DNA of 64,000 nucleotides, from assembly GCA_963710025.1 (NCBI GenBank), contig CAVPYO010000021.1, positions 50,517-114,516 on the forward strand, read 5' to 3'. Positions within the stretch are counted from its first letter, which is position 1. The number at the start of each line of letters is the position of its first letter. The DNA comes from an uncultured Alphaproteobacteria bacterium. Lineage in GTDB: Bacteria; Pseudomonadota; Alphaproteobacteria; Micropepsales; Micropepsaceae. Shown one piece after another: positions 5,832 through 22,573 of the stretch. Under the pieces are notes generated by a model, which saw only the letters and a list, made by a program, of their open reading frames with translations, was not told the origin of the DNA and searched no databases. Position numbers and translations under genes: made by a program.

Positions 5832-8237
5832 TTATTCCTTGTGTGACGCTGTCGCCGGGAGGAGCTGCACTTCGTCGATCGCCCAGATGGGGTCCACGCT
5901 GCGGCGTGTGAAGGTGAAACACAGATCGTGAACGCCTTGTTGCGGCTCGATCGTCGCGCGCAGCGTCGTTATCGCGTTGTCGGTTGCCGCCGCAGCGAGA
6001 GGCAGAATGGCGATGCGCTCGCCCTGGCAGCTGTCGAGGCGGACTACCAGCTCGCCGCTCGGCGTTTGCGGCGGAGTGAGCGGAATCTTGCGGATGTCCT
6101 GGCCGATCTGGAAATTGAAAGGCAGCCGGCCGACCGCCGCTTCGATGCTTCCTATGCCCGATAGGTCTGCCTGCTCGTACATCCAGCAAGGATTCATGAC
6201 GTTGACCATGAACATGGCGCGCTTACCATCCGGCTTGACGCCGCCTGCCAAAGAGAGCGGGAGGTCGTTCGTACACGGCTTCATCGCGTAGCTGCTGCGG
6301 CGCAGGACAGACAGAGCGTCGAGACTTTCTTGCGCCGGCGCCCCAAGCGCACGCGCGCGCCAAAACGCCGCTGAAGCGACGGTCGCGGGCAACGTCGTCG
6401 CAAAGGGTGCGGTATAGAGCGGCGAAGCTGCGGTCGGAATGCCGCCGTCGAGCGTGTAATGAATCTCGCCGAAACCGGCCTGATTGGCGAGCGACACGCG
6501 TGCACCCTTCCCTTCCGCCTGCGCATCGATCCGCACCGTCAAGGCGCTTTGCGAATGCGGTATGCCGAGCGCGCGGTAACGGCCGAATTGCGCCGGCAAC
6601 CGCTGTAGGAAATCCTGCCAATCGTGTTTGGCGGCGGGCGACCAAGCAAGTTCGGCAAGCGCGGCCGCGCGCGGGAACGCCGCGTAGTCGACGAGGTCAT
6701 CGCGGGCGATATATTCGGTCCAGATGCAGGCTTCCAGGCCGATGATATGGGCTTGCTGCTCCGCATTCAGTTGCGACGTGGCCGGATCGAAATCGTAGAC
6801 ATCCTTGAGCGAGATGAGATTGGCGCGGCAGGGCGGCTCTCCCGCGGTCTCCGACTGGCAATTGGAGAAATAAAGCTCGCTGCTGGGGGAGAGAACGACA
6901 TCGTGCCCGAGGCGCGCCGCCGTGACCGCCCCTTCTGGGCCGTGCCAGGAGGTGATAGCGGCGTTCGGCGCCAGCCCGCCGTTCATGATCTCGTCCCAGC
7001 CGATCAGACGGCGGCCGTGCGCGCTGAGAAATTTCCCGATCCTATCCACAAAATAGCTTTGCAGCGCATCCGCATCCTTGACGTGCCGGGCGCGCATCTG
7101 CCGGCGGATACGGGGAGAGGCGTTCCATTCGTCCTTGACCGCCTCGTCGCCGCCGACGTGAATATACCGGCTTGGGAAAAGGGCCATCACTTCGGTCAAC
7201 ACGTTTTCGAGGAAGGCGAAACTGGCGTCGTCGACATTGTAGAGGTAGGGGAAAATGCCCCAGTCGCCCGACACGCTCCTCGGCGGATGCTTGACGGAGG
7301 CGAGCTTGGGATAGGCGACGATCGCCGCGAGCGAGTGCCCGGGCATCTCGATCTCCGGCACGATCGTGACATTGCGCTGCCGGGCATAGGCAACGATGTC
7401 GCGCACATCATTCTGCGAATAATAGCCGCCATAGACTCCGGGCTGTCCGGGAACCCGCCGCCAAGCGCCGACAGCGGTCAGTTTGGGATACCGCTTGATC
7501 TGCAGGCGCCAGCCCTGATCGTCCGTCAAATGCCATTGGAGGACGTTGAGCTTGTGCAGTGCCATCGCGTCGATGAACGACTTCACGAAGCCGGGCGATT
7601 GAAAATGCCGTGAAGAATCGAGAAGGATTCCGCGCCAGCCAAAACGCGGGGCATCGACGATTTCCAAAGCGGGGACGTCGATCTGCCCGGCCGGTCCCTC
7701 CTCCTGGCTCAGTAATTGCCAAAACGTCACGGCGCCGTAAAGAAGCCCGGCGTTCGCGGCCGCGGAAATCACCACACCGTCCGACCCGACCTCAAGCCGA
7801 TAGGCTTCCGGATTCGCCGACAGAGGAGAAGTCACGCGCCGGAACATGACGGTCCCATGCGGCGCCCCGGAAACATCGCCGCCGACCGGCACCAGTGCGA
7901 TGCCGCGCGTGCGCCGAACCAGATCGCTCAAGTAGCCGGTCAGCCATGCGCAACCCTTGTCGCCTCCAGGGCATACCAGACGCGTTCCCGCCGCGACCGT
8001 GAAATGTCCTTGCCGCAGGACCAGCTCTTGCGGAAACGGGATCAGGGACAGCGGCGGCTTCGTCTCCGGCACAGGTGGCGGCGGTGCAACAAGGTTCTCG
8101 GCCCCACCGACGCGCTGGCTCGTCCAGTCCGGCATAATTCCCGAGCAAGAGGCAAGAAACGGCGCCGCGAGGATCGCCACCGCCCAAAGCTGCAACCCAA
8201 AGAGTGTCTGGCGAGGACAACGAGCGGCAATCTGCAT
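5832..8237 (-). CDS. Beta-N-acetylhexosaminidase (GH20) with chitobiase/Fn3-like and CBM6-like C-terminal domains; predicted lipoprotein
   Basis: GH20 motifs PRFGWRGILLDSSRH, QWHLTDDQGWR, PEIEMPGH and the catalytic HVGGDE. Lipobox-like LASC follows a hydrophobic stretch. Start set at ATG 8237 (the ORF track extends to 8360). Confidence 0.9.
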   Translation of the reverse strand: MQIAARCPRQTLFGLQLWAVAILAAPFLASCSGIMPDWTSQRVGGAENLVAPPPPVPETKPPLSLIPFPQELVLRQGHFTVAAGTRLVCPGGDKGCAWLTGYLSDLVRRTRGIALVPVGGDVSGAPHGTVMFRRVTSPLSANPEAYRLEVGSDGVVISAAANAGLLYGAVTFWQLLSQEEGPAGQIDVPALEIVDAPRFGWRGILLDSSRHFQSPGFVKSFIDAMALHKLNVLQWHLTDDQGWRLQIKRYPKLTAVGAWRRVPGQPGVYGGYYSQNDVRDIVAYARQRNVTIVPEIEMPGHSLAAIVAYPKLASVKHPPRSVSGDWGIFPYLYNVDDASFAFLENVLTEVMALFPSRYIHVGGDEAVKDEWNASPRIRRQMRARHVKDADALQSYFVDRIGKFLSAHGRRLIGWDEIMNGGLAPNAAITSWHGPEGAVTAARLGHDVVLSPSSELYFSNCQSETAGEPPCRANLISLKDVYDFDPATSQLNAEQQAHIIGLEACIWTEYIARDDLVDYAAFPRAAALAELAWSPAAKHDWQDFLQRLPAQFGRYRALGIPHSQSALTVRIDAQAEGKGARVSLANQAGFGEIHYTLDGGIPTAASPLYTAPFATTLPATVASAAFWRARALGAPAQESLDALSVLRRSSYAMKPCTNDLPLSLAGGVKPDGKRAMFMVNVMNPCWMYEQADLSGIGSIEAAVGRLPFNFQIGQDIRKIPLTPPQTPSGELVVRLDSCQGERIAILPLAAAATDNAITTLRATIEPQQGVHDLCFTFTRRSVDPIWAIDEVQLLPATASHKE

Positions 8238-8346
8238 GAACCAGCGATCCGGCCTGTTGCGAAGTGCCAAAGTCAAGGAGCGGAGCAACTTTCGCCACTC
8301 CGCTCCAGAACTTAACTTACTATGCAGGTTTGCACACGGGAAGGGC

Positions 8347-8378
8347 GAACCCGGGCGCACTTTGGCGCGCCCGGGTTC
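8347..8378 (-). promoter_or_regulatory. GC-rich intercistronic stem-loop after TBDR
   Basis: Perfect 12-bp inverted repeat GAACCCGGGCGC / GCGCCCGGGTTC with an 8-nt loop. No U-tract on the transcribed strand. Confidence 0.6.
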
Positions 8379-8388
8379 ATTTCATGCC

Positions 8389-11127
8389 TTAGTACTTCAA
8401 CCGAACGCCAGCATAGAATTGGCTGCCATTGCTATACAACGCGCGCGGCTGTGTGGCGTTGTTCGCGTAGTATTTCAATGTCTGGTTGCTCAGATTCAAT
8501 CCATCGAAGGTGATGGAGAGGTAATCGGTAACGGTGAAGGCCACCGATGCATCAAGTCTTCCATAGGCGTTCTGGTATTCCGCGGAACTGCGGTCCAGGC
8601 CAACCAACATGGAAGAAGCATAGCTATACGCTACGCGGGCGCTCAACCAGCTATTCTCGTAATAGCCGGTCAAGTTGGCCGTATTCTTCGCATCTCCAAC
8701 CAGCGGTCCGCCGTTGGTTTCCGCGCCGTTCGCATAGGTATAGTTGGCGATGATGCCGAAGCCCGTGTCCCAAAGCGGCTGCTGCCAGCTGATTTCGATA
8801 CCTTCATCATGCCCGCTGGTGTTGTAAGGAGCGGTAATGGCGTAGGTCGAGTAGACCGGAGTTCCTTGGCCTGTCAGATACATGTTCAAATATGTGCCAT
8901 TGGTCACGCCATAAGTCACATAAGAGGACAGATCCATGTAGAACAAGCCGACGGACAGCATCGCCTGCGGTCCATAGTACAATTCATAGCTGAGATCGTA
9001 GTTCGCCGATCTGATCGGTTTCAGGTTGGGGTTGCCGCCGGTACCGACCAGGATCAGGTCGGTCAGATTCACCGCGCCGCCCAAAGCACTGTAGTCGGCG
9101 CGTGACATGGCTTCTGCAGCTGCAAAGTGCAGCACGCTCTCGTCGTCCAGATGGATGCTGAGATTGGCGCTGGGCAGGATGTCCCAATAGTCGTGCGTGA
9201 TCTTGTTGGTGGAAAAATTACCGAAATCGCTGTACGTGCCACTCGGATCGTTAACGTCCTGCATGATCGTCTCGGCCGTTTTGACGAGCCGAACGCCGAA
9301 GTTGCCCTTCCATCTGTCGCCACCGAGTATCGCCATGGCATAGAGCGCGGTGTCCTGTTCGCGAACGTCCGTGGCGCCTTCCCAATCGTACCGGGAAGCC
9401 CGAGTGACGCCGGCGGCCGATTGCGTATAACTCCTCCAACTCGTGTTGTTATCCAGGAGGGTTACGATGTCGGCCATATTTCCCTGCGGCACGCTTGTTA
9501 ACATGCCAGGGATCTTGAACGCATTCGCGAAATTGGACGGGTAGTCGGAAGTGGAGACCAAACTTCCGCTCGCGAGGGAGCCGCCATACGAAACGCCGCC
9601 GTCATAAAGTAAGGAGGTGTGTCTATGGTCGGAGAAACGCGCACCCGCCTTCACGGACTGGATCGGGCCGATGGCAACCTTCTGCTCGACATCAACTTGA
9701 CCATAGTATTCGTGGTCATCCGCTTTCGATACCGCGCCCCACGCCCAGTCATTGGTCAGGGTGGAAGGATCGGCCGTGTTCACCCCCGGAACGCTGACCG
9801 CAGCAACGCCGGTGCTGAAATCGTAGCTGGCGGCATTGCCTGTCGTCGGTGCAACTTCACCTTCCCAGGCCGCCTGTTGCGGCGTCGTGCCGGTACCACG
9901 GGTATAACCCGCTTTGAAAGCCACCGTCAGATCGTCGCTCGGGTTCCAAGCCGCATCGGCGTTGACGTAATAGGTATCGCTCATGGACGCCGGACGCATG
10001 ATCATGTCTTCAACGATCGGAGCAATCCCGGCTTTTGCTGGCAAGGTTGCGGCAACAAGCGTGTTGTTCGTCACCGTATAGCTGCTGGGTACGTTCGCAG
10101 TAGGACCATTAAACTCCTTCGTACCCCAGAACATGTAGTTGTTGTTGAGGTTGCTGGCGCCCATATGCGAATAGAAGCCGTCCACATTCAGCTTAAAGCT
10201 ATCGCTAGGCTGGAACTCCACGGCGAGATCGCCGCCCTGGCGGATGCGCTGCTGTAAGAACAACGCCGAGCCGATCAAGGTGGGATAATACACACCTACA
10301 AGATCCGGATGGGTGGCAGTAGCGAGGTCACCGCTGGCCGGCGTCACGACGGCATGAGTAATCGGGTCTATAACCGCCGGGACATACTTCTGGAACTGCG
10401 AATAGCCGAGGAATTCCTGACCGTCGCGGCGGATGTTGCGCGCTTCATAAAAAGCCTGCGCCATAACGCCGATCGTGCCTGCATCGTCCTTCCAGGCAAA
10501 CAACGCATTCAATTGCGGAGTGGTGTCCCCGCGCAGCGTCGTATAGGCCGCTTCCGCGCTCCCTTCGAGCGTCAAATTGTCCTTGAAGTCGAGCGGTTTG
10601 CGGGTCTGGATATCGACCTCGCCTGCCACGCCGCCTTCCAGCAAATCGGCTTGCTGGCTCTTGTACACCTTGGCAGAGTCCACGATTTCCGCCGGGAACA
10701 GCGAATAGCTGACGCTGCGGCCGATCGTCTGATACTGATCGAGGATGAACCAATCACCGGTGGAGACCTCGTGTCCGTTGACGATGGTCTGCGTCAAGCT
10801 TGCATTGGTGCCGCGGATGGAAACGCGGTCGTTTTCGTCGAAGCCACCCTCACCGCTCGCTGCCGAAACCGTATTGACACCCGGAACGCGTTGCAACGCG
10901 TCGGCCACGTTTTTGTCCGGAAACTTGCCGATATCTTCCGCCGACACGGCGTCCACGATCGTGGTCGAATCGCGCTTGATATCGAGCGCGCGCTCCGCCG
11001 ATGCACGGATGCCCGTGACGACGACCGTTTCCATCGGCGCGTTTGTATCCTGGCCAACTGCGGGCCCCGTCGCGGCCAAGATGGCAAGCAAGCTGGCGGA
11101 CCCGACTAACACTTCCCTCAATTTCAT
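8389..11127 (-). CDS. TonB-dependent receptor (Caulobacter/Xanthomonas type), probable chito-oligosaccharide importer
   Basis: Signal peptide, TonB box ETVVVTGIRAS, plug motif DAVSAEDIGKFPDKNVADALQRVPGV and an aromatic C-terminal strand. Substrate inferred from context. Confidence 0.9.
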   Translation of the reverse strand: MKLREVLVGSASLLAILAATGPAVGQDTNAPMETVVVTGIRASAERALDIKRDSTTIVDAVSAEDIGKFPDKNVADALQRVPGVNTVSAASGEGGFDENDRVSIRGTNASLTQTIVNGHEVSTGDWFILDQYQTIGRSVSYSLFPAEIVDSAKVYKSQQADLLEGGVAGEVDIQTRKPLDFKDNLTLEGSAEAAYTTLRGDTTPQLNALFAWKDDAGTIGVMAQAFYEARNIRRDGQEFLGYSQFQKYVPAVIDPITHAVVTPASGDLATATHPDLVGVYYPTLIGSALFLQQRIRQGGDLAVEFQPSDSFKLNVDGFYSHMGASNLNNNYMFWGTKEFNGPTANVPSSYTVTNNTLVAATLPAKAGIAPIVEDMIMRPASMSDTYYVNADAAWNPSDDLTVAFKAGYTRGTGTTPQQAAWEGEVAPTTGNAASYDFSTGVAAVSVPGVNTADPSTLTNDWAWGAVSKADDHEYYGQVDVEQKVAIGPIQSVKAGARFSDHRHTSLLYDGGVSYGGSLASGSLVSTSDYPSNFANAFKIPGMLTSVPQGNMADIVTLLDNNTSWRSYTQSAAGVTRASRYDWEGATDVREQDTALYAMAILGGDRWKGNFGVRLVKTAETIMQDVNDPSGTYSDFGNFSTNKITHDYWDILPSANLSIHLDDESVLHFAAAEAMSRADYSALGGAVNLTDLILVGTGGNPNLKPIRSANYDLSYELYYGPQAMLSVGLFYMDLSSYVTYGVTNGTYLNMYLTGQGTPVYSTYAITAPYNTSGHDEGIEISWQQPLWDTGFGIIANYTYANGAETNGGPLVGDAKNTANLTGYYENSWLSARVAYSYASSMLVGLDRSSAEYQNAYGRLDASVAFTVTDYLSITFDGLNLSNQTLKYYANNATQPRALYSNGSQFYAGVRLKY

Positions 11128-11245: not shown

Positions 11246-11397
11246 CAATACCATCCATAAATAGGTACTATGTGTCAAGCAGGGACTGTACCAATTCTGC
11301 CACAAATGCCTGAATTTCTGCATTGTTGACGACGTGGGGGGATGATGTGGTATCTAATTGGTAGGATACCTTTTCCCTGTCACGTGGTATGATACCA
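11246..11397. promoter_or_regulatory. Divergent promoter region with TGGTAT-type operator boxes (candidate NagQ sites)
   Basis: CAATACCA 11246-11253, GTACCAAT 11288-11295, TGGTAT 11348, TGGTAGGATACC 11359-11370 and the perfect palindrome TGGTAT-G-ATACCA 11385-11397. Confidence 0.7.
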
Positions 11398-11432: not shown

Positions 11433-12176
11433 GTGCCTACATTCTCAACGATGATAGGGGCCTTGGATGAGGCCAACAGCCTGCCGTTGTATCAACAATT
11501 GCAACGCGGCCTCAGGCAGGCGATCACACAGAAACTGTTGACGCCCAATGACGCCTTACCCCCCGAGCGGGATCTTGCCGAGGAATTCTCGATATCGCGC
11601 ATCACCGTGCGCCGCGCGATCGACGGCCTGGTGAACGAAGGACTGCTGACGCGTCGCCAGGGCTCGGGGACCTTCGTGGCCAGTCGCGTCGAAAAAAGTT
11701 TCTCCAAGCTGACAAGCTTTTCGGAAGACATGGCGACGCGCGGCCGCACACCGCGTTCCGCGTGGCTCAAACGGTCGCAAGGCACGGTGACGCCGGAAGA
11801 GGCAATGACCATGGGGCTCAGCCCCGGAACGCCGGTCTATCGCTTCAACCGTTTGCGATACGCCGACGATGTGCCGATGGCGCTGGAATTCTGCACTATA
11901 CCGACCTTCTGCCTGCCCTCGATCGACGCCGTCACGTCCTCGCTCTACCAGGCCTTGGAGAAATCCGGTCATCGGCCCAAGCGTGCCCTGCAACGGTTGC
12001 GCGCCGTGCTTCTGACGAGCTTGCAGGCGGAACATCTGCAGGGAAATGTCGGCGATGCCGGCCTTTTGGTCGAACGGCGCGGCTTTCTGCTCGACGGCCG
12101 AGTCGTGGAATTTTCTCAGTCCTATTACCGCGGCGATACCTACGACTTCGTCGCGGACCTCAATGCATCGGAGTAG
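11433..12176 (+). CDS. nagQ: GntR/HutC-family regulator with UTRA domain (NagQ-type)
   Basis: wHTH LPPERDLAEEFSISRITVRRA, RRQGSGTFV and a UTRA effector domain. It is the first gene of the nagB-nagA operon. GGAGG RBS, GTG start. Confidence 0.8.
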   Translation: MPTFSTMIGALDEANSLPLYQQLQRGLRQAITQKLLTPNDALPPERDLAEEFSISRITVRRAIDGLVNEGLLTRRQGSGTFVASRVEKSFSKLTSFSEDMATRGRTPRSAWLKRSQGTVTPEEAMTMGLSPGTPVYRFNRLRYADDVPMALEFCTIPTFCLPSIDAVTSSLYQALEKSGHRPKRALQRLRAVLLTSLQAEHLQGNVGDAGLLVERRGFLLDGRVVEFSQSYYRGDTYDFVADLNASE

Positions 12177-12179
12177 ACG

Positions 12180-13244
12180 ATGGTGAGCCCGTTGCAAAAC
12201 TCCGCTCTAGCCGCCCCGCAGGTCGGTCGTACGAAGATGTTCAACGAAGCGCAAGAAGCGCCGGAGGTGGTGGAACGCCAGTTGCGGGCTAACGACGCTG
12301 TCATGACAGACATCGCCTCCCGCCTGCGGGCCCTGGCCCCGCGCGCCGTGGTAACCGTGGCGCGCGGCAGTTCCGATAATGCCGCAACCTTCGCGAAATA
12401 TCTCATCGAGACCAAGCTCGGGATTCTTACCTCTTCCGCTGCTCCGTCCGTCAGCTCCATTTACAGCGTCAGAACCGAACTCAAGGGCACGCTGGTCCTC
12501 GCGATCTCGCAATCCGGCCGCAGCCCCGATCTTATTACCGCGCTCGACATCGCCAAGCGCGCCGGCGCGTTCACCCTTGCACTCGTCAATGTTGCCGAGT
12601 CGCCGCTAGCCGAGTTCGCCGATGTGGTCCTGCCTCTGCATGCCGGGCCGGAGCGCAGTGTCGCTGCCACCAAATCCTACCTCGCGACCAACGCCGCGAT
12701 CGCGCATTTGGTCGCGGCCTGGAGCGGCGACCATGCGTTGCACGAAGCGCTGAAACTGCTACCCGCACAGTTGAGGGAGGCATGGTCGCTTGACTGGAGC
12801 GCGGCCACGACGAGGCTTCAATCCGCGCGCGATCTTTACGTCATTGCCCGCGGCTTAGGCTTCGGCGCGGCGCAAGAAGCGGCGCTGAAATTAAAAGAAA
12901 CCTGCGCCTTGCATGCGGAAGCATTCAGTGCCGCCGAAGTCCGCCACGGCCCGATGGCGATCGCAAACAAAGGCTTTCCGGCCCTGGTGCTGTCACAAAA
13001 CGACGAAACAAGGCTTGGAATCAAGGAGACCGTGACTGCGTTCTTGGCGCATGGCGTCGACGTGCTACTGGCGGGATTCGAAGATCCCCACGCCTTGAAT
13101 CTTCCATCCTTGGCGGCCCATCCCGCGTTGCAGCCGATCCTTTTCCTGCAAAGTTTCTATCGGATGGCCGAAGCGCTGTCGCGGGCGCGCGGTCTGAATC
13201 CAGACAATCCTCCCTACCTCAACAAAGTGACCGAGACGCTGTGA
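12180..13244 (+). CDS. nagB: Glucosamine-6-phosphate deaminase, SIS-domain type (NagB-II)
   Basis: Two SIS domains (ARGSSDNAA, ISQSGRSPD, ERSVAATKSY, EAALKLKE, AEVRHGP) and C-terminal NPDNPPYLNKVTETL. No glutaminase domain. Confidence 0.85.
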   Translation: MVSPLQNSALAAPQVGRTKMFNEAQEAPEVVERQLRANDAVMTDIASRLRALAPRAVVTVARGSSDNAATFAKYLIETKLGILTSSAAPSVSSIYSVRTELKGTLVLAISQSGRSPDLITALDIAKRAGAFTLALVNVAESPLAEFADVVLPLHAGPERSVAATKSYLATNAAIAHLVAAWSGDHALHEALKLLPAQLREAWSLDWSAATTRLQSARDLYVIARGLGFGAAQEAALKLKETCALHAEAFSAAEVRHGPMAIANKGFPALVLSQNDETRLGIKETVTAFLAHGVDVLLAGFEDPHALNLPSLAAHPALQPILFLQSFYRMAEALSRARGLNPDNPPYLNKVTETL

Positions 13245-14392
13245 TGACAACTGCACTTGCCAATGGCCGTATCGTGACCGGTAGAGCCTTGGCGAAAGGC
13301 CTCACCATATTAATCGAAGACGGACGAATCGGCGCCATCGTCCCGGCACACGCTGTGCCGCAAGGATGCGAAGTCTACGACCTGGAAGGCGGCACGCTGA
13401 TGGCCGGCTTCATCGATCTTCAGGTCAACGGAGGAGGAGGCGTGCTGTTCAACGACGCCCCGACAGTCCAGGCGCTGCACACGATCGGCCGCGCCCATAG
13501 CCGTTTCGGCACCACGGGATTTTTGCCGACCATCATGAGCGACGACTTCGCCACCATCGCCGAGGCTATTGCGGCCGTGGACGAGGCTATCGCCGCGGGC
13601 GTGCCTGGCGTGTTGGGCATCCATATTGAAGGCCCGTTCCTCAACGCGGAGCGGAAGGGCATCCACGACCCCGCTAATTTTCGGATTCTGGACGCCGACG
13701 GCTTTTCGCTCGTCACCTCACTCAAGCGCGGCAAGACGATGCTGACACTGGCGCCGGAGACCACGAGCCCGCGCATGATCGCGGCCCTGACCGAAGCAGG
13801 CGTGCTGGTTTCCGCCGGCCATACCAATGCGAATTACGAGATATTGACGGCCGCTTTCGCTGCCGGGCTTCGGGGCTTCACGCATCTGTTCAACGCCATG
13901 TCGACGCTGACGGCCAGGGCGCCGGGTACGGTGGGAAGCGCGCTCGACAATGACGACTGCTGGTGCGGAGTTATCGTGGACGGCCGCCACGTGCATCCGG
14001 CCTCGCTGCGCGTCGCGCTGCGCTGCAAGGGCCGCGACCGGCTGATGCTCGTTACCGATGCGATGCCGAGCGTCGGATCCTCTCGTAAGTCCTTCGAACT
14101 GGCCGGCAAGACGATCAGCGTCCAGAACGGTGTCTGCGTTGGCCCCGACGGCACATTGGCGGGATCGGATCTCGACATGGCGGCGGCGTTCCGCAACGCA
14201 AAATCGTTTTTCAAGCTCGACCTGCCCGACCTCTCGCGCCTAGCCAGCGGCAATGCAGCGGAGTTTCTTGGCCTCGAACGGGAGATCGGTTTCATCCTGC
14301 CAGGCGCCCGCGCCGATCTTGTCCTGATGAACGACGAACTGCAGGTGCGGCAATGTTGGATCGGCGGCAAACCGCAGCTCGTACGGGAGTGA
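13241..14392 (+). CDS. nagA: N-acetylglucosamine-6-phosphate deacetylase
   Basis: GFIDLQVNGGGG, GIHIEGPF, SAGHTNA, THLFNAM, VTDAM, LAGSDL. Confidence 0.95.
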   Translation: MMTTALANGRIVTGRALAKGLTILIEDGRIGAIVPAHAVPQGCEVYDLEGGTLMAGFIDLQVNGGGGVLFNDAPTVQALHTIGRAHSRFGTTGFLPTIMSDDFATIAEAIAAVDEAIAAGVPGVLGIHIEGPFLNAERKGIHDPANFRILDADGFSLVTSLKRGKTMLTLAPETTSPRMIAALTEAGVLVSAGHTNANYEILTAAFAAGLRGFTHLFNAMSTLTARAPGTVGSALDNDDCWCGVIVDGRHVHPASLRVALRCKGRDRLMLVTDAMPSVGSSRKSFELAGKTISVQNGVCVGPDGTLAGSDLDMAAAFRNAKSFFKLDLPDLSRLASGNAAEFLGLEREIGFILPGARADLVLMNDELQVRQCWIGGKPQLVRE

Positions 14393-14462: not shown

Positions 14463-15722
14463 ATGAAATGGATTGCCGGTCTTCTTCTGCTCTGTTGCGG
14501 CACAAGCCTCTCCGCCTGGGCGGCGCCTTCGGCCGCAGACGTTAGCGTTGCCAAGCCATGCAGCCAGCCTGTCTCCGACAAAGGCCGCGAAACAATCCAG
14601 CAGCGCAGGGTTTTCGTCGGGTACTACCCCAGTTGGCTCGACCCCGTTCTTGCGCCAAGCGCGAACGGCTGCGACACGACACAGGAAGGGGCGCCTGCCA
14701 GCGGTCTTGCATTTGCGCCGGCAGCCTATAGCCATATCGTCATCGCCTTCGCCGATCCCAATTTTTCCTGGGACGGCGACATGACGTCCTGGGCGGGCAG
14801 CGGCCTGCAGTTCCGCGCATCGCCGGTACAGGTCGAACGCGCCATCGACGCGCTCCATGCCCGCAAGCTGCGCGTTCTGTTGGCCGTAGGCGGAGCAATC
14901 TACAAAAATTGGACGGCCCTCGCCGCCGAAGGCCGCAGCCGGACCGCCGGACCGATGACCAAGGCCCTGGCGCACATGGTGGGCGCCCTGGGGCTTGACG
15001 GCTTGGATATCGATTACGAAGTCGAAGGGGCGGACGGTGCCGCGATTGCGGACTATCGCGACGCGATCCGCGCGCTCGACACCGCCGTCCGCCTCGCCGG
15101 CCGCGGCAAGCTTCTGACACTCGCCGCCTGGTCCATAGGCGCCGACTGCACCACGGCGACCGAACTTTCGCCTTGCCGAGGCGAAACATCCTCCTGGCCG
15201 GGAGGCTTCGCCGGACGGGAACGTCTGACCTTTGCGGACCCCAATATCGTCCGTATGCTGAGCATGGTCAGCGTCATGTCCTATGACGCGGGATACGAAA
15301 ATTACGACGCCGTCAGGGCATGGACGCTATACCGCGCGCTGCTGCCCAAGAGGATCGTCGTCAACATCGGATTCGAAATCGCGCCCGAGGGATGGGGCGG
15401 CGGCAGGCTGGTCGCCGAAGACGCGCAGGCTGAGTGCCCCGGCTCGGTCATTGTGGCCGATCAATTCGGCGAGCCGGTGAACCAACCTTATTCCGTGGAT
15501 CGCCTGATCAAGGCCGCGCCTTTGAGCCGGCGGCCGCACGGCAATCCGCAAGACGGGGTCATGCTCTGGAACATTCTCAAGAACGAGAATCTGCCGGATT
15601 GTGGATCCTTGCCCGTCGTTTCACCAAAGGGATTGGAAGCCAAGGCCGCTGCCGTTCTGGATGCCGGGCCCGATGGTGTCGCTTCTCCATCCGCCCATCC
15701 CGAGGCCGCCCATGTCCAGTGA
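14463..15722 (+). CDS. Secreted GH18 chitinase-like protein
   Basis: Signal peptide MKWIAGLLLLCCGTSLSAWA, AVGG motif, intact catalytic DxxDxDxE (LDGLDIDYE) and VMSYD. Start at ATG 14463 after a GGAG RBS. Confidence 0.85.
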   Translation: MKWIAGLLLLCCGTSLSAWAAPSAADVSVAKPCSQPVSDKGRETIQQRRVFVGYYPSWLDPVLAPSANGCDTTQEGAPASGLAFAPAAYSHIVIAFADPNFSWDGDMTSWAGSGLQFRASPVQVERAIDALHARKLRVLLAVGGAIYKNWTALAAEGRSRTAGPMTKALAHMVGALGLDGLDIDYEVEGADGAAIADYRDAIRALDTAVRLAGRGKLLTLAAWSIGADCTTATELSPCRGETSSWPGGFAGRERLTFADPNIVRMLSMVSVMSYDAGYENYDAVRAWTLYRALLPKRIVVNIGFEIAPEGWGGGRLVAEDAQAECPGSVIVADQFGEPVNQPYSVDRLIKAAPLSRRPHGNPQDGVMLWNILKNENLPDCGSLPVVSPKGLEAKAAAVLDAGPDGVASPSAHPEAAHVQ

Positions 15723-17034
15723 GAGTTCCATCGTCTCGACGCCGATCGAAACCGTTGCCGCTAGACGTCGCCATTTTCATCCCGCCACTTGGGTACCCAC
15801 GCTCTACACCGCCGAGGGCCTGCCATTCGTGATGGTGAATGTGGTTTCGGTGTTCATGTACAAAAGCCTCGGTCTCAACGACAGCAAGATCGCCTTCTTC
15901 ACTAGCCTCGTGACCATCCCCTGGGCGATAAAGCCGCTATGGGGGGCATTGATCGAGATGTTCCGCACCAAGAAGGCGTTCGTCCTGGCCACGGAACTAG
16001 GCGGCGGCGTCTGCTTCGGACTGGTGGCGCTCAGTCTGCACCTGCCCTCCTGGTTCGCGTGGACTCTTATCTTCTTTGGCCTTTGCGCCATCAACTCATC
16101 CGTCCACGACACGGCCGCCGACGGGATCTATGTCACCGTCCTCAACGCTAAACAGCAGGCAAAATGGGTCGGCTGGCAAGGCGCGTTTTACAATGTCGGC
16201 AAGATCGTCAGCCAAGGCGGATTCGTCCTGGTCGCCGGGCTTTTAGAAAAACGCTACGGGCCGGTCTCTGCCTGGACGATAGTGTTCTGCGCTTTCGGAT
16301 TGCTGATGATCACGATCGGCCTCTGGCATCTGCTGTTTCTGCCATCCGGCGGGCGCGCCAAACCCGTCTCCACGGCTCAGGCCGCCCGCACTTTTCTCGA
16401 TGTGCTCGTGACCTTCTTCCGCAAAAAATACATCCTGTGGGGTATCGTGTTTCTCGTGCTCTACCGTTTTGCCGAGGGCCTAGCGATCAAGATCGCGCCG
16501 CTGTTTTTGCGCGCCGCGCGTGACCATGGCGGCCTCGGTCTGTCGACAGCGGATGCCGGGTGGCTCTATGGCGTCTTTCCGCCTATCGCCTTCGTCCTGG
16601 GCTCGATCGCGGCGGGCTATTTCACGGCAGGCAGAGGATTGCGCAAATCGCTTCTAGTGCTGTGCGCAGCCTTCAACATTCCCTTTGCGGTATATCTTTT
16701 CCTTGCTCTGGTGCAGCCCGCCGACCGCTCGCTCATTACAGTCCTGGTGAGCCTCGAGTGGCTTGGATACGGATTCGGATTTGTCGGTCTGATGCTTTTC
16801 ATGATGCAGCAGATCGCGCCAGGCCCCTACCGCACGGCCCATTACGCCTTCGCGACCTCCCTGATGGGGTTCGGGTTCCTGATCCCCTCGTCGATGAGCG
16901 GCTTTTTAAGTGACGCGCTGGGTTACCAGAAATTCTTCCTCCTGGTGATGCTGGCGACCATTCCTTCCTTCCTCATCTCCTGGCTGGTGCCCTTCCGCGA
17001 TACCTCGGCGGAAGCGCAGCCGGGAGTGGTTTGA
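15712..17034 (+). CDS. AmpG-like MFS permease
   Basis: AmpG-family motifs (YTAEGLPF, PWAIKPLWGALIE, HDTAADG, YRFAEG, YRTAHYAFATS) and about 12 hydrophobic segments. Overlaps the GH18 stop. Confidence 0.85.
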   Translation: MSSESSIVSTPIETVAARRRHFHPATWVPTLYTAEGLPFVMVNVVSVFMYKSLGLNDSKIAFFTSLVTIPWAIKPLWGALIEMFRTKKAFVLATELGGGVCFGLVALSLHLPSWFAWTLIFFGLCAINSSVHDTAADGIYVTVLNAKQQAKWVGWQGAFYNVGKIVSQGGFVLVAGLLEKRYGPVSAWTIVFCAFGLLMITIGLWHLLFLPSGGRAKPVSTAQAARTFLDVLVTFFRKKYILWGIVFLVLYRFAEGLAIKIAPLFLRAARDHGGLGLSTADAGWLYGVFPPIAFVLGSIAAGYFTAGRGLRKSLLVLCAAFNIPFAVYLFLALVQPADRSLITVLVSLEWLGYGFGFVGLMLFMMQQIAPGPYRTAHYAFATSLMGFGFLIPSSMSGFLSDALGYQKFFLLVMLATIPSFLISWLVPFRDTSAEAQPGVV

Positions 17035-17048
17035 CCGGAGCGCACGAC

Positions 17049-19304
17049 ATGAACACGCCCTTGAAAGTTCTCGTTCTCGCCGCGGGACAGAAGTCGATGC
17101 CATCCGGCGGCGGCGCGCTTGAGCTGCAACCGCTCGGCGACAGCACCGTGCTCGGACACGTGGTGCGCAACTTGCGCGGGCTTGCGGCGCCGCGCGATCT
17201 CATCGTCATCGCGGCGCCGGGCTCGCTCAAGGCGATCCAGAAAGAGCTGGGCTGGGAGCCAGCCTATGTCATCCAGGAAGAACCGCTGGGCACCGGCCAT
17301 GCCGTTTTGCAGGCGGCGGGGATCTTGAGCGGATACGACGGGGACCTACTCATCCTTTATGCCGACACGCCGCTGCTGCGCCCGGCTACGCTGCGCGGCC
17401 TTCTAAACCGTCACCGGCTGAAAGCCGCCGACCTCACCCTCCTCACCGCCAACGTCCCGCAAGACCTGCCCTACGGGCGCGTACGGCGCGACGCCTCTGG
17501 CAAGATTCTCGACATCATCGAGCAATCCGAGGCGACAACGGAGGTCAAGGCGCTGCGCGAATTGAACGTCGGCGCCTATGTGGTGCGCGCGACGACGATC
17601 CTCGAGGCCCTGAGCGGCCTTAAGCCCCCCGAAGATGCCGCCGAATTGCGCCTGACGGATTGCGTGCAGCAGCTTTTGCGCTCGGGCCTGAAAGTGGACA
17701 GCTACCAGCTCTACGATCCGGACGAGGTTCGCGGCATCAACGACATCGCGGATCTGGAACAGGCCGCTTTCATTCTCCAGAAGCGGCTTTTCCGCCCTCG
17801 CCGCCAGGAAGAGGAAAACGAGGTGTCGTTCGGCACCGGCGGCTGGCGCGCCATCATCGGCGAAGGGTTCACTCTGCATAATGTGCGGCGGCTCTGCCAA
17901 GCCCTCGCCAACGAGAGCACGCGCAGCGGAGTGGAGAAAAAGGGCGTCATCGTCGGTTACGACCGCCGCTTCCTTAGCCGCCAGGCCGCCGAGGCCGCGA
18001 GCGAGGTATTCGCCGGCAACAATATCCCGACGATCTTATGCAGCGAGGATGCTCCGACTCCGCTCATCAACTATGCCACAGCGATGCTGGGCAGCGCCTA
18101 CGGTTTGGCCTTCACCGCCAGCCACAACCCACCGGAATGGAATGGATTGAAAGTGTTTCACGGCGACGGCTCGTTGCTGCTCGATCACGAGACCAAGACC
18201 GTCGCCGCCGAAACGAATGCCCTGACCACATCCGACGTCATCAAGCTGGAGCTGGATCTGGCTCTGGAGGCCGGCATCGTCAAGGTCAGGGACTTCACCA
18301 ACGAATATGTCGATGCGGTGGAAGCCTTGATCGACATGGACGTGATCCGCAAGGCGGGACTGAAGCTGATCGTGGATCCGATGTACGGCGTGGGGCAATT
18401 GACTCTCGAGACGGTCCTCGTCGAAGCGCGCTGCCGGGTTCACTTCATCCACAACCGCCATAATCCGCTTTTCGGCGGACGCAGCCCGGCGCCCGATCTG
18501 GAGGCGATGCGCGATCTCATCAACGAATTGCAGCAGAAAAGTTACGATCTGGGGCTGGCGATGGACGGCGACGCGGACCGTATCGCCATCGTCGACGAGA
18601 AAGGCCGCTACATCTCGTTTAACGACGTGCTCGTGCTGCTTTACTGGTATCTGCACGAAGTACGCGGCGAACGGGGCAGCGTGGTGCGCAATCTCAGCAC
18701 CACGCATATTCTGGACCGTTTGGCCAAGGCGCTCGGCGAGGACTGCATCGAAGTGCCGGTGGGCTTCAAGCACATCGCCGCCGCGATGGTCGAGCACAAC
18801 GCCCTGCTGGGCGGAGAGAGCAGCGGCGGCCTCACCATCCGCGGCCATATCCTCGGCAAGGACGGCATCTTCGCCTCGGCAATCGTGGTGGAGATGGTGG
18901 CGCGCACCGGTCTCAAGATCAGCGAATTGCAGGAGAAAGTGTGGTCCCTGACCGGTCGGCTTTACAGCGCAGAGGAACATTTCCCCGCTACGCCGGAAAT
19001 GAAGATCGCCATTCCGAAGCTGCTGAAGGAAGCGCCTTGCAACGATGTCGCCGGCTATCCGGTGGAACGCATCAGCCACGTGGACGGCACCAAGCTCTAC
19101 CTGGCCAACGACAACTGGGCGCAGCTGCGCTTCAGCGGCACCGAGCCTGTGCTGCGCCTAGCGGTGGAAGCGGACAGCCCCGAGAAGGCGCGGGACCTGA
19201 TCGCTTGGCTGAAGCAATTCGTCTCCGCAAAAGCAGAAAAATCGACAACCGCCGAGGATCCATGCGTTACGGCCATTTCGACAATGAAAACCGCGAATAT
19301 GTGA
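17049..19304 (+). CDS. Fusion: GlmU-like nucleotidyltransferase domain plus phosphohexomutase (probable GlcNAc-1-P/6-P mutase)
   Basis: The N-terminal ~250 aa carry GlmU-like motifs (LAAG, QEEPLGTGHAV, LYADTPL, YGRV, ELNVG, LTD, GIND). The C-terminal part has intact mutase motifs TASHNP, DGDADR, GGESSGG and RFSGTEP. Confidence 0.85.
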   Translation: MNTPLKVLVLAAGQKSMPSGGGALELQPLGDSTVLGHVVRNLRGLAAPRDLIVIAAPGSLKAIQKELGWEPAYVIQEEPLGTGHAVLQAAGILSGYDGDLLILYADTPLLRPATLRGLLNRHRLKAADLTLLTANVPQDLPYGRVRRDASGKILDIIEQSEATTEVKALRELNVGAYVVRATTILEALSGLKPPEDAAELRLTDCVQQLLRSGLKVDSYQLYDPDEVRGINDIADLEQAAFILQKRLFRPRRQEEENEVSFGTGGWRAIIGEGFTLHNVRRLCQALANESTRSGVEKKGVIVGYDRRFLSRQAAEAASEVFAGNNIPTILCSEDAPTPLINYATAMLGSAYGLAFTASHNPPEWNGLKVFHGDGSLLLDHETKTVAAETNALTTSDVIKLELDLALEAGIVKVRDFTNEYVDAVEALIDMDVIRKAGLKLIVDPMYGVGQLTLETVLVEARCRVHFIHNRHNPLFGGRSPAPDLEAMRDLINELQQKSYDLGLAMDGDADRIAIVDEKGRYISFNDVLVLLYWYLHEVRGERGSVVRNLSTTHILDRLAKALGEDCIEVPVGFKHIAAAMVEHNALLGGESSGGLTIRGHILGKDGIFASAIVVEMVARTGLKISELQEKVWSLTGRLYSAEEHFPATPEMKIAIPKLLKEAPCNDVAGYPVERISHVDGTKLYLANDNWAQLRFSGTEPVLRLAVEADSPEKARDLIAWLKQFVSAKAEKSTTAEDPCVTAISTMKTANM

Positions 19305-21652
19305 TCGACCGGATCGACGTCCCGGTCTCCTGGACCAATTACATCGGCGTGAACCGGATGTGCGCGGTGCTCAGCCATGTGGCGGGCGGCTACAGCTTCT
19401 ACCGCGATGCCGAGCACGGCCGCATCACCCGATTCCGCCCCAATGGCGTGCCCATGGATTGGCCGGGGCACTGGATATACCTGCGCGACGACGAGGACAG
19501 GGACTATTGGACGATCACCTGGCAGCCGGTGGGAAAGCCCTTGGACCAGGCAAAATACGAATGCCGCCACGGCTTGTCCTATTCCCGCTACGAAGCCGAA
19601 TACAAAGGTATCCGCGCGGAACAGCTGATCTTCATCACCCACGAGGACGACGTGGAGATCTGGGATGTGCGGGTGAAAAACCTTTCGAGTCGCCCGCGCA
19701 CGCTCAGCCTCTTCAGCTATCTCGAATGGAGTTTCCACCACATCGAGATCGACAACCAGAATTTCCAGATGTCTCTTTATGCCAGCGGCTCCAGTTACGC
19801 CCAGGGCGTGATCGAATACGACTTCCATTACGAACCCTGGACCTACCATTTCCACGCCGCGAGTTTCGAGCCCGACGGCTTCGACAGCATGCGCGACAGC
19901 TGGATCGGGCCTTACCGCAGCGAACGCAATCCGCTGGCGGTGAGCGACGGCCGCTGCGGCGACAGCGCGGAGACGACCGGCAACCACTGCGCCAGCCTCC
20001 ACAAGCGGATCACGCTTGCTCCCGGCGAAGAGCGGCGATTTGTCTTCATGGTCGGCACCGGCGACCGCGCGGTGGGTATCGAGAAAAAGGCCAAGTATAG
20101 CGACTTCAAGAAGGTCGACGCCGCCTTCGCCGACCTCAAAGACTATTGGGACGAGAAATGCGCCGTCTTCCAGGCGACGACGCCCAATCCCGGGCTCGAC
20201 ACCATGGTCAACATCTGGACGCTCTACCAGGCGGAGACCTGCGTGGTTTGGAGCCGGTTCGCCAGCTTCATCGAGGTCGGCGGTCGCACCGGACTTGGCT
20301 ATCGCGACACCAGTCAGGACGTGATGGCGGTTCCTCACACCAACCCGGCGAAGGTCAAGCAACGCCTCACGGAGCTGCTCAACGGCCAGGTCAGCATGGG
20401 CTACGGCCTGCACCTATTCGATCCGGAATGGTTCCTCCCGCAGCAAAAGCCAAAATTCAAGAGTCCCACGATCGCGCATGCACCGGCCAAATCGAGCTAC
20501 ATCCACGGACCCGACCAAGCCTGCTCGGACGACCATCTCTGGCTCATCCCCTCGATCTGCGACTATGTGAAGGAAACCGGCGATACCGCCTTCTTCGACG
20601 AGGTGATTCCTTATTGCGACAAAGGCGAAGCCACGGTTTGGGACCATATGAAGGCGGCCCTCAATTTCAGCGCCAAAAAAGTCGGCCCCTCGGGTATCTG
20701 CCTCGGTCTGCGCGCCGACTGGAACGATTGTCTCAATCTTGGCGGCGGCGAGAGCGCCATGGTGAGCTTCTTGCACCATTGGGCCCTGCTCGCCTTCGTG
20801 GAGGCGGCCCAGTTCCTGGGCCGTCAGGAGGACGGCGAAACCTATCGCGCCCTGGCGGCCAAGGTGCGCGCCGCCTGCGAGCGCGAATTGTGGGACGGCA
20901 AATGGTATGCCCGCGGCACCACCGCGTCCGGCCTCAAGATCGGCACCGAGGCCAGCGAAGAGGCCAAGGTCTTCATCGAAAGCAACAGCTGGGCGGTCCT
21001 CTCCGACGCCGCGCCGCGCAAGCACGCCGAAGCCGCGGTCGCGGCGATGGACGAACATCTTTTCTCGCCTTGGGGACTGCACCTTCTGCAGCCGAGTTTC
21101 TCACGGCCCAACGACGAGATCGGTTTCATGGGCCGCGTCTACAAAGGCGTGAAGGAAAACGGTGCCATCTTCAGCCATCCCAATCCCTGGGCGGTGATCG
21201 CCGCGGCGAAACTCGGCCAGGGCGGCCGCGCGATGCGCTTCTACGACAGTCTTTTGCCCTATAATCAGAACGACAAGATCGAAACCCGGCAGGCGGAACC
21301 CTACAGCTATTGCCAGTTCGTCTACGGCGCCGAGCACAAGCGGCATGGCCGGGCGCGGCATCCCTGGCTGACCGGCAGCGCCGGTTGGAGTTACACCGCC
21401 GTCACCAAATGGATTCTCGGCGTGCGTCCCGGCTTTAAGGGCTTAACGGTCGATCCCTGCATCCCGCCCAATTGGCCAAGCTTCACGGTTGTACGCAAAT
21501 GGCGCGGCGCCACCTATCGCATCGAGATCCGCAATCCGGACGGCGTCAGCAAGGGCGTGCGCTCCATACTTCTCGACGGAAAACCCATTGCGGGCGAAAT
21601 ACCGGTTCAACCCACCGGTAGCGTGGCCGACGTTACCGTCGTCATGGGTTAG
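19262..21652 (+). CDS. chbP: N,N'-diacetylchitobiose phosphorylase (GH94)
   Basis: Starts MRYGHFDNENREYVI like Vibrio ChbP, with GAGGA RBS. Carries RTGLGYRD, CSDDHLWL, RADWNDCLNLGG, KENGAIFSHPNPW and HPWLTGSAGW. Confidence 0.88.
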   Translation: MRYGHFDNENREYVIDRIDVPVSWTNYIGVNRMCAVLSHVAGGYSFYRDAEHGRITRFRPNGVPMDWPGHWIYLRDDEDRDYWTITWQPVGKPLDQAKYECRHGLSYSRYEAEYKGIRAEQLIFITHEDDVEIWDVRVKNLSSRPRTLSLFSYLEWSFHHIEIDNQNFQMSLYASGSSYAQGVIEYDFHYEPWTYHFHAASFEPDGFDSMRDSWIGPYRSERNPLAVSDGRCGDSAETTGNHCASLHKRITLAPGEERRFVFMVGTGDRAVGIEKKAKYSDFKKVDAAFADLKDYWDEKCAVFQATTPNPGLDTMVNIWTLYQAETCVVWSRFASFIEVGGRTGLGYRDTSQDVMAVPHTNPAKVKQRLTELLNGQVSMGYGLHLFDPEWFLPQQKPKFKSPTIAHAPAKSSYIHGPDQACSDDHLWLIPSICDYVKETGDTAFFDEVIPYCDKGEATVWDHMKAALNFSAKKVGPSGICLGLRADWNDCLNLGGGESAMVSFLHHWALLAFVEAAQFLGRQEDGETYRALAAKVRAACERELWDGKWYARGTTASGLKIGTEASEEAKVFIESNSWAVLSDAAPRKHAEAAVAAMDEHLFSPWGLHLLQPSFSRPNDEIGFMGRVYKGVKENGAIFSHPNPWAVIAAAKLGQGGRAMRFYDSLLPYNQNDKIETRQAEPYSYCQFVYGAEHKRHGRARHPWLTGSAGWSYTAVTKWILGVRPGFKGLTVDPCIPPNWPSFTVVRKWRGATYRIEIRNPDGVSKGVRSILLDGKPIAGEIPVQPTGSVADVTVVMG

Positions 21653-21658
21653 TTCCGC

Positions 21659-22573
21659 ATGCGTTTCGGAATAGATCTCGGCGGCACCAAAATCGAAATC
21701 CGCGCTCTGGGCGAGCACGGCAAGGAGCTACTGTGCAAACGCGTGCCAACGCCCACGCAGTGTTATGCAGATGTCGTCGCCGCCATTCGCGACCTCGTTT
21801 TCGACAGCGAGCTGCAGCTCGGCCGGCGCGGTAGCGTGGGCGTCGCCATCCCCGGATCGATGAGCAGCATGACCGGCCTTGTCAAAAACGCACCGAACAT
21901 CGGCCTCAAGGGCCATCCTTTGGATCGGGATCTGGCCGCGGCGCTGGGCCGGCCGGTGCGCATCGAGAACGACGCCAATTGTTTTACCCTTTCGGAAGCC
22001 CGCGATGGCGCCGCTGCCGGCAAGAATGTCGTGTTCGGCATCATCGTCGGAACCGGTGTGGGCGGCGGCATATGCGTCGGCGGCCATATCCTGACCGGCG
22101 CCAACCACATCGCCGGCGAATGGGGCCATACGCCTCTGCCCGCGCCATGCGGCGAAGAATTGACTCATCCGGTTCTCTGCAAGTGCGGTCGCAGCAACTG
22201 CATCGAAAGCTGGTGCAGCGGCCCGGGGTTGGCCGCGCGCTTTACCGTTCGCACCGGCCGTACGCTGTCGGTGCCGGAAATCGTTGCGGAAGCCAAGAGG
22301 GGCGACCGGGAAGCGGCCGAAGAAATGGAAAAATTCTACGACCGGTTCGCCAGAGCGATCGGCACGATCGTCAGCATTATCGACCCGGATGTCGTCGTGA
22401 TCGGCGGGGGGCTTTCCAATATCGACGCGCTATACAGCGAATTGCCGAGACGGGCGCAGAAACATGCCATCTCGCCGGAAGGCCCCATCCGCGTCGTCAA
22501 GAACCGCCATGGCGATTCCAGCGGCGTGCGCGGCGCCGCGTGGCTGTGGCGCGAAGAAGAAGTCGAAGAATAG
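21659..22573 (+). CDS. ROK-family sugar kinase (Mak-like; probable GlcNAc kinase by context)
   Basis: GIDLGGTKIE, ENDANCF, GTGVGGG, GEWGH and the Zn motif CKCGRSNCIE. Confidence 0.85.
   Translation: MRFGIDLGGTKIEIRALGEHGKELLCKRVPTPTQCYADVVAAIRDLVFDSELQLGRRGSVGVAIPGSMSSMTGLVKNAPNIGLKGHPLDRDLAAALGRPVRIENDANCFTLSEARDGAAAGKNVVFGIIVGTGVGGGICVGGHILTGANHIAGEWGHTPLPAPCGEELTHPVLCKCGRSNCIESWCSGPGLAARFTVRTGRTLSVPEIVAEAKRGDREAAEEMEKFYDRFARAIGTIVSIIDPDVVVIGGGLSNIDALYSELPRRAQKHAISPEGPIRVVKNRHGDSSGVRGAAWLWREEEVEE

Follow-up and report, generated by a model that had tools for sequence, protein, structure and literature searches.

A divergent AmpG-superfamily permease that travels with chitobiose phosphorylase, a probable chitobiose importer in an uncultured alphaproteobacterium

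Results

A permease gene in a chitin catabolic operon

The window analysed here, a stretch of 64,000 nucleotides from one contig of an uncultured alphaproteobacterium of the Micropepsaceae, carries on its forward strand a run of genes whose spacing ranges from -40 to +70 nt. The run opens with a GntR/UTRA regulator, NagQ-like by domain match (11433 to 12176), followed by a NagB-II-like glucosamine-6-phosphate deaminase (12180 to 13244; 353 bits against a cut-off of 430) and the GlcNAc-6-phosphate deacetylase NagA (13241 to 14392; above the cut-off of TIGR00221). Next comes a GH18 gene (14463 to 15722) for an exported protein, with a signal peptide recognised by eye, an intact DGLDIDYE motif and weak matches to GH18 chitinases only; its product is probably a chitinase and the probable supplier of chitobiose. 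Beyond it lie the permease gene (15712 to 17034), for which profile, fold and residues predict an AmpG-superfamily MFS importer of (GlcNAc)2 with protons, and a gene in which profile matches recognise a GlmU-N-like domain fused to a phosphohexomutase (17049 to 19304), an enzyme that would turn GlcNAc-1-P into GlcNAc-6-P. The run ends with the GH94 chitobiose phosphorylase ChbP (19262 to 21652) and a ROK sugar kinase, also placed by profile matches (21659 to 22573), whose substrate is probably the free GlcNAc that ChbP sets loose. The first-pass annotation of this DNA had set the permease between GH18 and chbP; it does overlap the GH18 gene, but the mutase fusion separates it from chbP. The same fusion recurs between permease and chbP in both of the ChbP-linked clades described below.

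On the opposite strand, profile matches identify a TonB-dependent receptor for outer-membrane uptake (8389 to 11127), a NagF-like PTS EIIA-HPr-EI fusion (3311 to 5827) and a PTS EIICB of the NagE type, a transporter of GlcNAc monomer (1554 to 3314). Among them lies a GH20 beta-hexosaminidase (5832 to 8360; domain match, lipoprotein-type signal with lipobox LASC), part of a parallel monomer route. A TPR-sulfotransferase gene (13 to 1542) borders the cluster, and in two relatives such a gene is found within the cluster, with GH20 on one side and the TonB receptor on the other (L081:1486-2931; L083:1403-2836).

The intergenic region between the two gene strands holds a TGGTAT-N5-TGGTA direct repeat (11348 to 11363, forward strand), and TGGTA[TG] sites number 5 in its 305 bp, where 0.1 would be expected. 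Of six relatives, five (L001, L031, L081, L083 and L109) have the pair as well, and L112 lacks it. Judged from sequence, it probably serves the GntR repressor as operator, and it resembles NagQ operators. A scan for sigma-70 promoters and terminators gave no signal above chance. Another TGGTAT-N5-TGGTA site occurs in the same genome (C20:17559), flanked by an integrase fragment and a FadL-like porin gene, where no link to GlcNAc genes is seen.

The protein and its substrate site

The gene at 15712-17034 on the forward strand encodes an AmpG-superfamily MFS permease, which the first-pass annotation had called AmpG-like. Its open reading frame is intact, begins with the ATG at 15712, overlaps the stop end of the GH18 gene by its first 11 nt and specifies 440 aa; a GTG start at 15601 was ruled out, since homologues are 420-445 aa long. 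The protein matches the Pfam profile MFS_1 at 54 bits (cut-off 33.4), and its AlphaFold model (pLDDT 85, pTM 0.84) has the two-bundle MFS architecture, with top fold matches that are all MFS proteins. The closest PDB folds are those of AmpG, 8zgz and 8zke (Foldseek E 6e-11, AmpG holding ranks 1-3), with VIA Z values of 38.8 and 38.6 versus 34.8 for the next family, at 18-19% sequence identity. This link came from the fold search only, a PDB sequence search with the permease or its alignment returning no match. The permease reaches 107 bits on the AmpG profile TIGR00901, far below the cut-off of 350, and it is 22% identical to betaproteobacterial AmpGs. A canonical AmpG, scoring 478 bits by the same profile, sits on another contig of the genome; hence the permease is a paralogue and not the AmpG orthologue. 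Parts of the gene are covered by metatranscriptome contigs in three runs; these are small shares without a DNA control and were not counted as expression.

When AmpG is bound to its substrate, the GlcNAc is held by K62 and D125 and the anhydro-MurNAc by R153 and R365; R153 is needed for function, and D238 and E326 handle protons, with D238E being functional (PMC12214514; see also PMC11568325). These residues were mapped through alignments at about 20% identity by way of the genome's own AmpG, not by residue-level structural superposition. On this alignment-based mapping, the permease keeps the GlcNAc-binding set (K74, D133, D137 and Y160 for K62, D125, D129 and Y152) and the proton-coupling pair (E255 and E349 for D238 and E326), but it has N161 where AmpG has R153, so the Arg that binds anhydro-MurNAc is gone. 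Asn stands there in all 113 rows linked to ChbP, GH130, GH18/GH20 or Nag genes, and likewise in the GH1-type rows (n = 4, of which two were placed by similarity, no GH1 neighbour being confirmed for them). The peptidoglycan-locus rows have Arg in 8 of 8 cases, and across canonical and peptidoglycan-locus rows together the residue is Arg or Lys. Residue 161 changes only once in the tree. Within the permease's subfamily, conservation extends to E35 and K164, and an extra Lys or Arg follows residue 161 by one turn in the ChbP, GH130 and Nag rows. The second Arg, R365, which contacts the acetyl group of MurNAc, aligns with F389; the peptidoglycan-locus branch is also without Arg here, a Lys stands one place on in the canonical AmpG of this genome, and R365 is not diagnostic.

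Position 35, in TM1, is Glu in 41 of 41 ChbP-linked rows and Met in 65 of 65 GH130-linked rows. Put more generally, rows with a predicted GlcNAc at the non-reducing end have Glu or Gln, and those with a predicted Man or Glc have Met. This rule fits the neighbour class in 81 of 81 rows through 3 tree changes, amounting to 2-3 independent pairs (sign test p 0.5), and as a substrate indicator it is only a lead.

The partner enzyme and other uptake routes

ChbP requires intact, free (GlcNAc)2 in the cytoplasm. The GH94 protein of the operon matches the Vibrio chitobiose phosphorylase 1v7v over its full length at 1169 bits, versus 485 for the best cellobiose phosphorylase, its WND motif aligns with that of 1v7v, and it has no signal peptide. 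By sequence it is a ChbP orthologue, cytoplasmic as first proposed, and orthology predicts that it phosphorolyses (GlcNAc)2. It is 63% identical to the GH94 of Ignavibacterium album, and a homologue of the permease (64% identity) lies immediately 5' of that gene as well. The GH94 of this I. album MAG appears to be the orthologue of IALB_1006, an enzyme that PMC8950772 lists among the characterised chitobiose phosphorylases.

A search of the genome, which is 99% complete, turned up neither a PTS IIA of the Lac (chitobiose) family nor a sugar ABC system or sugar ABC permease, nor any NagP-like match; the family-1 binding proteins (n = 4) are by appearance of molybdate, phosphate, sulfate and polyamine type. 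The earlier statement that the locus is devoid of ABC and chitobiose-PTS genes had passed over the NagE-type PTS for GlcNAc monomer in the locus itself. Nor were AnmK and MurQ found in the genome, though canonical AmpG, GH3-like and NamZ-like genes are present. Two further GH94 genes of the same genome each adjoin a secondary transporter of their own, a GPH-like MFS together with GH1 in one case (C21:37638-42935) and a sodium:solute symporter in the other (C20:263427-267788), the family names resting on inspection by eye and tblastn.

Co-inheritance with ChbP

Among 151 genomes of the family, permease and ChbP occur in the identical six, with the same gene order in all six, and NagE is present in every one of these carriers. 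Since NagB-II-like matches are found in 40 of the 151, the permease tracks ChbP and not GlcNAc use generally. The six carriers are not independent, as they belong to one genus and probably reflect one acquisition. Their permeases nest among Ignavibacteriota and Bacteroidota sequences in the tree, a placement that, together with the scarcity of homologues in other classes of Pseudomonadota (below), suggests horizontal gain without proving it.

When the search was started from ChbP, the permease was found in 34 of 80 metagenomic loci and in 27 of the 50 where at least 4 kb upstream was available. ABC permeases occur in 6 of the ChbP loci, both kinds together in none, and in 18 of the 50 well-covered loci the queries used found no copy of either. 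The ChbP-linked homologues form two separate clades, a single clade being rejected by the AU test (p about 1e-34, on a quick IQ-TREE tree with long branches to the outgroups); therefore, the link between ChbP and permease is either old or has arisen more than once. The first-pass annotation had suggested looking for GH94 or GH18 linkage among homologues, and that linkage proves tight from both sides.

The wider subfamily and its neighbours

The majority of 80 GTDB loci are from Bacteroidales, where a homologue 50-57% identical to the permease immediately precedes a GH130 gene of the Uhgb_MP/BT1033 type and GH92 or GH18 is a frequent companion. Enzymes of this type cleave Man-beta-1,4-GlcNAc (PMC8950772). 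The GH130-linked sister branch, which comprises 65 Bacteroidales loci, was, like the parallel GH20 and NagE monomer route, absent from the first-pass annotation. In two Bacteroidota loci, from genomes without a ChbP match, permease and GH18 stand beside a GH20 that has no evident signal peptide. Some loci of the GH130 and ChbP types hold a sodium:solute symporter in addition to the permease (L054, L055, L058, L059, L068; L126, L128-L130, L134, L138, L176, L177).

In a sample of 400 Pseudomonadota genomes, homologues occur outside the Alphaproteobacteria in only five, which are betaproteobacterial as judged from gene content and fall into three groups: one with NagA, NagB-II and a GH3 without evident signal peptide; one with GH1 or no clear partner; and one with MurQ-like, kinase and amidase genes. 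The last of these groups with Bacteroidota copies that have SpoIID/LytB, NamZ and MurQ-like genes as neighbours, which is the layout of the Tannerella forsythia muropeptide permease. This peptidoglycan-locus branch is 36-41% identical to the permease and is divided from it by a starred branch of the tree; beside the ChbP- or GH130-linked homologues, no peptidoglycan-recycling genes recur.

Six distant representatives outside the sample gave a weak check: one, in a Nag cluster, fits the pattern and three are uninformative, while a fifth, P0127, has the same residue signature with no sugar genes nearby. The sixth overlaps a GH48 gene, with GH8 near (L237:4698-8503), which suggests that its branch imports cello-oligosaccharides. 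Three complete proteobacterial genomes (G427, G466 and G189, with loci L194, L195 and L198) have no AmpG above the TIGR00901 cut-off and instead carry an Arg-bearing homologue of the Bacteroidota type; in L194 it adjoins MurQ-like and amidase genes, and the homologue may be the muropeptide permease of these genomes.

Discussion

The candidate permease probably imports chitobiose, because it travels with ChbP and has lost the contact through which AmpG holds the cell-wall sugar. The gene, its predicted fold, the residue pattern, the layout of the operon and the co-inheritance come directly out of the analysis; from there we infer substrate, direction and coupling ion alike and consider it probable that the protein is a proton-coupled importer of intact, unphosphorylated (GlcNAc)2 feeding ChbP, which supports the proposal made in the first-pass annotation. 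This reading also gains from the failure to find a sugar ABC system or a Lac-family PTS IIA in the genome, from the GH20 or GH3 without evident signal peptide that stands beside homologues elsewhere, and from the secondary transporters that neighbour the genome's other GH94 genes. The pathway would begin with release of (GlcNAc)2 by GH18, while the TonB receptor would take oligomers into the periplasm. The permease, an inner-membrane secondary carrier and most likely a proton symporter, would then import the disaccharide, which ChbP would split into GlcNAc-1-P and GlcNAc; mutase and ROK kinase would give GlcNAc-6-P, and NagA and NagB-II would complete the pathway. Within the site, K74 and D133 would bind the non-reducing GlcNAc at O3/O4 as their AmpG counterparts do, with N161 and K164 replacing the anhydro-MurNAc contact. 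Perhaps the substrates also include chitotriose.

The main weakness of the chitobiose-importer reading is that the GH20 lipoprotein and NagE constitute a complete parallel route that needs no disaccharide importer. The 18 well-covered ChbP loci in which the queries found neither kind of permease, the sodium:solute symporter of some loci and the lone signature of P0127 speak against it as well. With GH20 and the ROK kinase both in the locus, the permease could instead bring in GlcNAc monomer, in a NagP-like role, or carry GlcNAc and its oligomers broadly, feeding the kinase after periplasmic hydrolysis; the residues kept from AmpG bind a single GlcNAc ring, and in Flavobacterium johnsoniae a chitin-locus MFS protein, unrelated to the permease by test, is required for monosaccharide uptake (PMC5127042). 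We think this unlikely, given that all six carriers possess NagE, that in the relatives searched the permease tracks ChbP exactly and is missing from the others that have NagB-II, and that the sister branch tracks another disaccharide phosphorylase. The permease might also serve the operon in another way, for example by exporting a product of the pathway or by carrying a chito-oligomer that is modified or has lost some of its acetyl groups. In favour of this, the direction of an MFS protein cannot be read from sequence, and the AmpG/PAT family counts acetyl-CoA transporters among its members; the retained AmpG sugar site and acidic proton-coupling pair, and the consistent position just upstream of cytoplasmic disaccharide-splitting enzymes, make it quite unlikely.

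The recycling of peptidoglycan disaccharide, which the first-pass annotation had offered as its alternative, is now disfavoured. AmpG is the closest solved fold, and the neighbouring branch does keep company with SpoIID/LytB, NamZ, MurQ-like and amidase genes, as T. forsythia AmpG does (PMC5388701); but that branch is a separate one, the genome has its canonical AmpG elsewhere and no AnmK that could be found, no peptidoglycan-recycling genes recur beside the ChbP- and GH130-linked homologues, and the Arg invariant in the peptidoglycan-locus rows is Asn here, so that a second muropeptide permease for GlcNAc-(anh)MurNAc seems very unlikely. Import of Man-beta-1,4-GlcNAc or another fragment of the N-glycan core, with GH18 acting as an endo-beta-N-acetylglucosaminidase, would agree with the nesting of the permease's branch among the GH130-linked homologues and with the divergence of the GH18 protein, which has a weak match to the EndoS barrel. 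No GH130 orthologue was found in the genome (best match 26%), and the Glu at position 35 that marks the ChbP-linked rows sets them apart from the Met of the GH130-linked ones; we regard this reading as highly improbable.

A broader scheme can be put forward tentatively, and we hold it as a possibility that may well prove wrong: AmpG-like proteins of the divergent kind, which occur in Bacteroidota, Ignavibacteriota and some Proteobacteria, could be importers of beta-1,4-disaccharides with protons, their substrates readable at TM5 position 161 and TM1 position 35. Arg161 would then mean a reducing sugar of the MurNAc type and Asn161 GlcNAc or Glc, while Glu or Gln at 35 would mean an N-acetylated non-reducing sugar and Met35 Man or Glc; the permease would be the chitobiose member, and its sister protein in Bacteroides would be the importer so far lacking for the disaccharide of the N-glycan core. 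A one-gene MFS route for chitobiose would fill the missing step of phosphorolytic chitin use in Ignavibacteriota, Bacteroidota and some Alphaproteobacteria of soil, peat and sediment. With it, many proteins that now carry the annotation "beta-lactamase induction signal transducer AmpG" would prove to be glycan importers, gut Bacteroides would gain a candidate for Man-GlcNAc uptake, and engineers would have a small part for chitobiose uptake ahead of ChbP. To our knowledge, bacterial chitobiose import has been described via ABC and PTS systems. In a literature search that left subscription journals largely outside and is thus incomplete, we found no paper assigning chitobiose transport to such a protein or joining AmpG-like permeases with chitobiose phosphorylase or GH130, in keeping with the earlier description of the importer as undescribed; a paper on Xanthomonas ampG deals with a canonical AmpG.

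The permease would resemble AmpG in its working but departs from it in two features, the profile score and R153. Compared with the E. coli (9c3f) and Yokenella (8zgz, 8zke) structures, it keeps the equivalents of K62, D125, D129, Y152, K235 (as R), D238 (as E) and E326, whereas identity is about 20%, R153 and R365 have become Asn and Phe, and Asp70 of motif A is Glu. It also sits in a chitin catabolic operon, while the true AmpG is separate in the genome. Closer in sequence is the branch of the T. forsythia AmpG (Tanf_08365), tested as a muropeptide permease (PMC5388701), which belongs to the same wider subfamily; the branch was assigned by lytB-ampG-namZ synteny, the Tannerella sequence itself having been left out of the comparison. 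There, the neighbours are peptidoglycan genes (lytB, namZ, murQ) and TM5 of that branch reads R-S-T-F-Y-R; here, the neighbour is ChbP and TM5 reads Q-G-A-F-Y-N-x-x-K. The GH130-linked MFS proteins of Bacteroidales, the sister branch, have the N161/K164 signature in common with the permease, and the layout of their loci, a permease followed by a phosphorylase of an X-beta-1,4-GlcNAc disaccharide, is the one seen here; they differ in having GH130 and not GH94 as partner and Met in place of Glu at position 35. Nihira et al. (2013) reportedly note that the BT1033 cluster includes an MFS gene, for which they give no transport assay. Among established chitobiose systems, ChbP of the Vibrio chb operon is served by an ABC transporter, and E. 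coli relies on the ChbBCA PTS. PTS import does not suit ChbP, because it delivers chitobiose-6-P, which is not the substrate of the phosphorylase. The operon described here matches the Vibrio pathway in its module of ChbP, mutase and kinase, but import would be through a single-gene MFS permease and not an ABC system.
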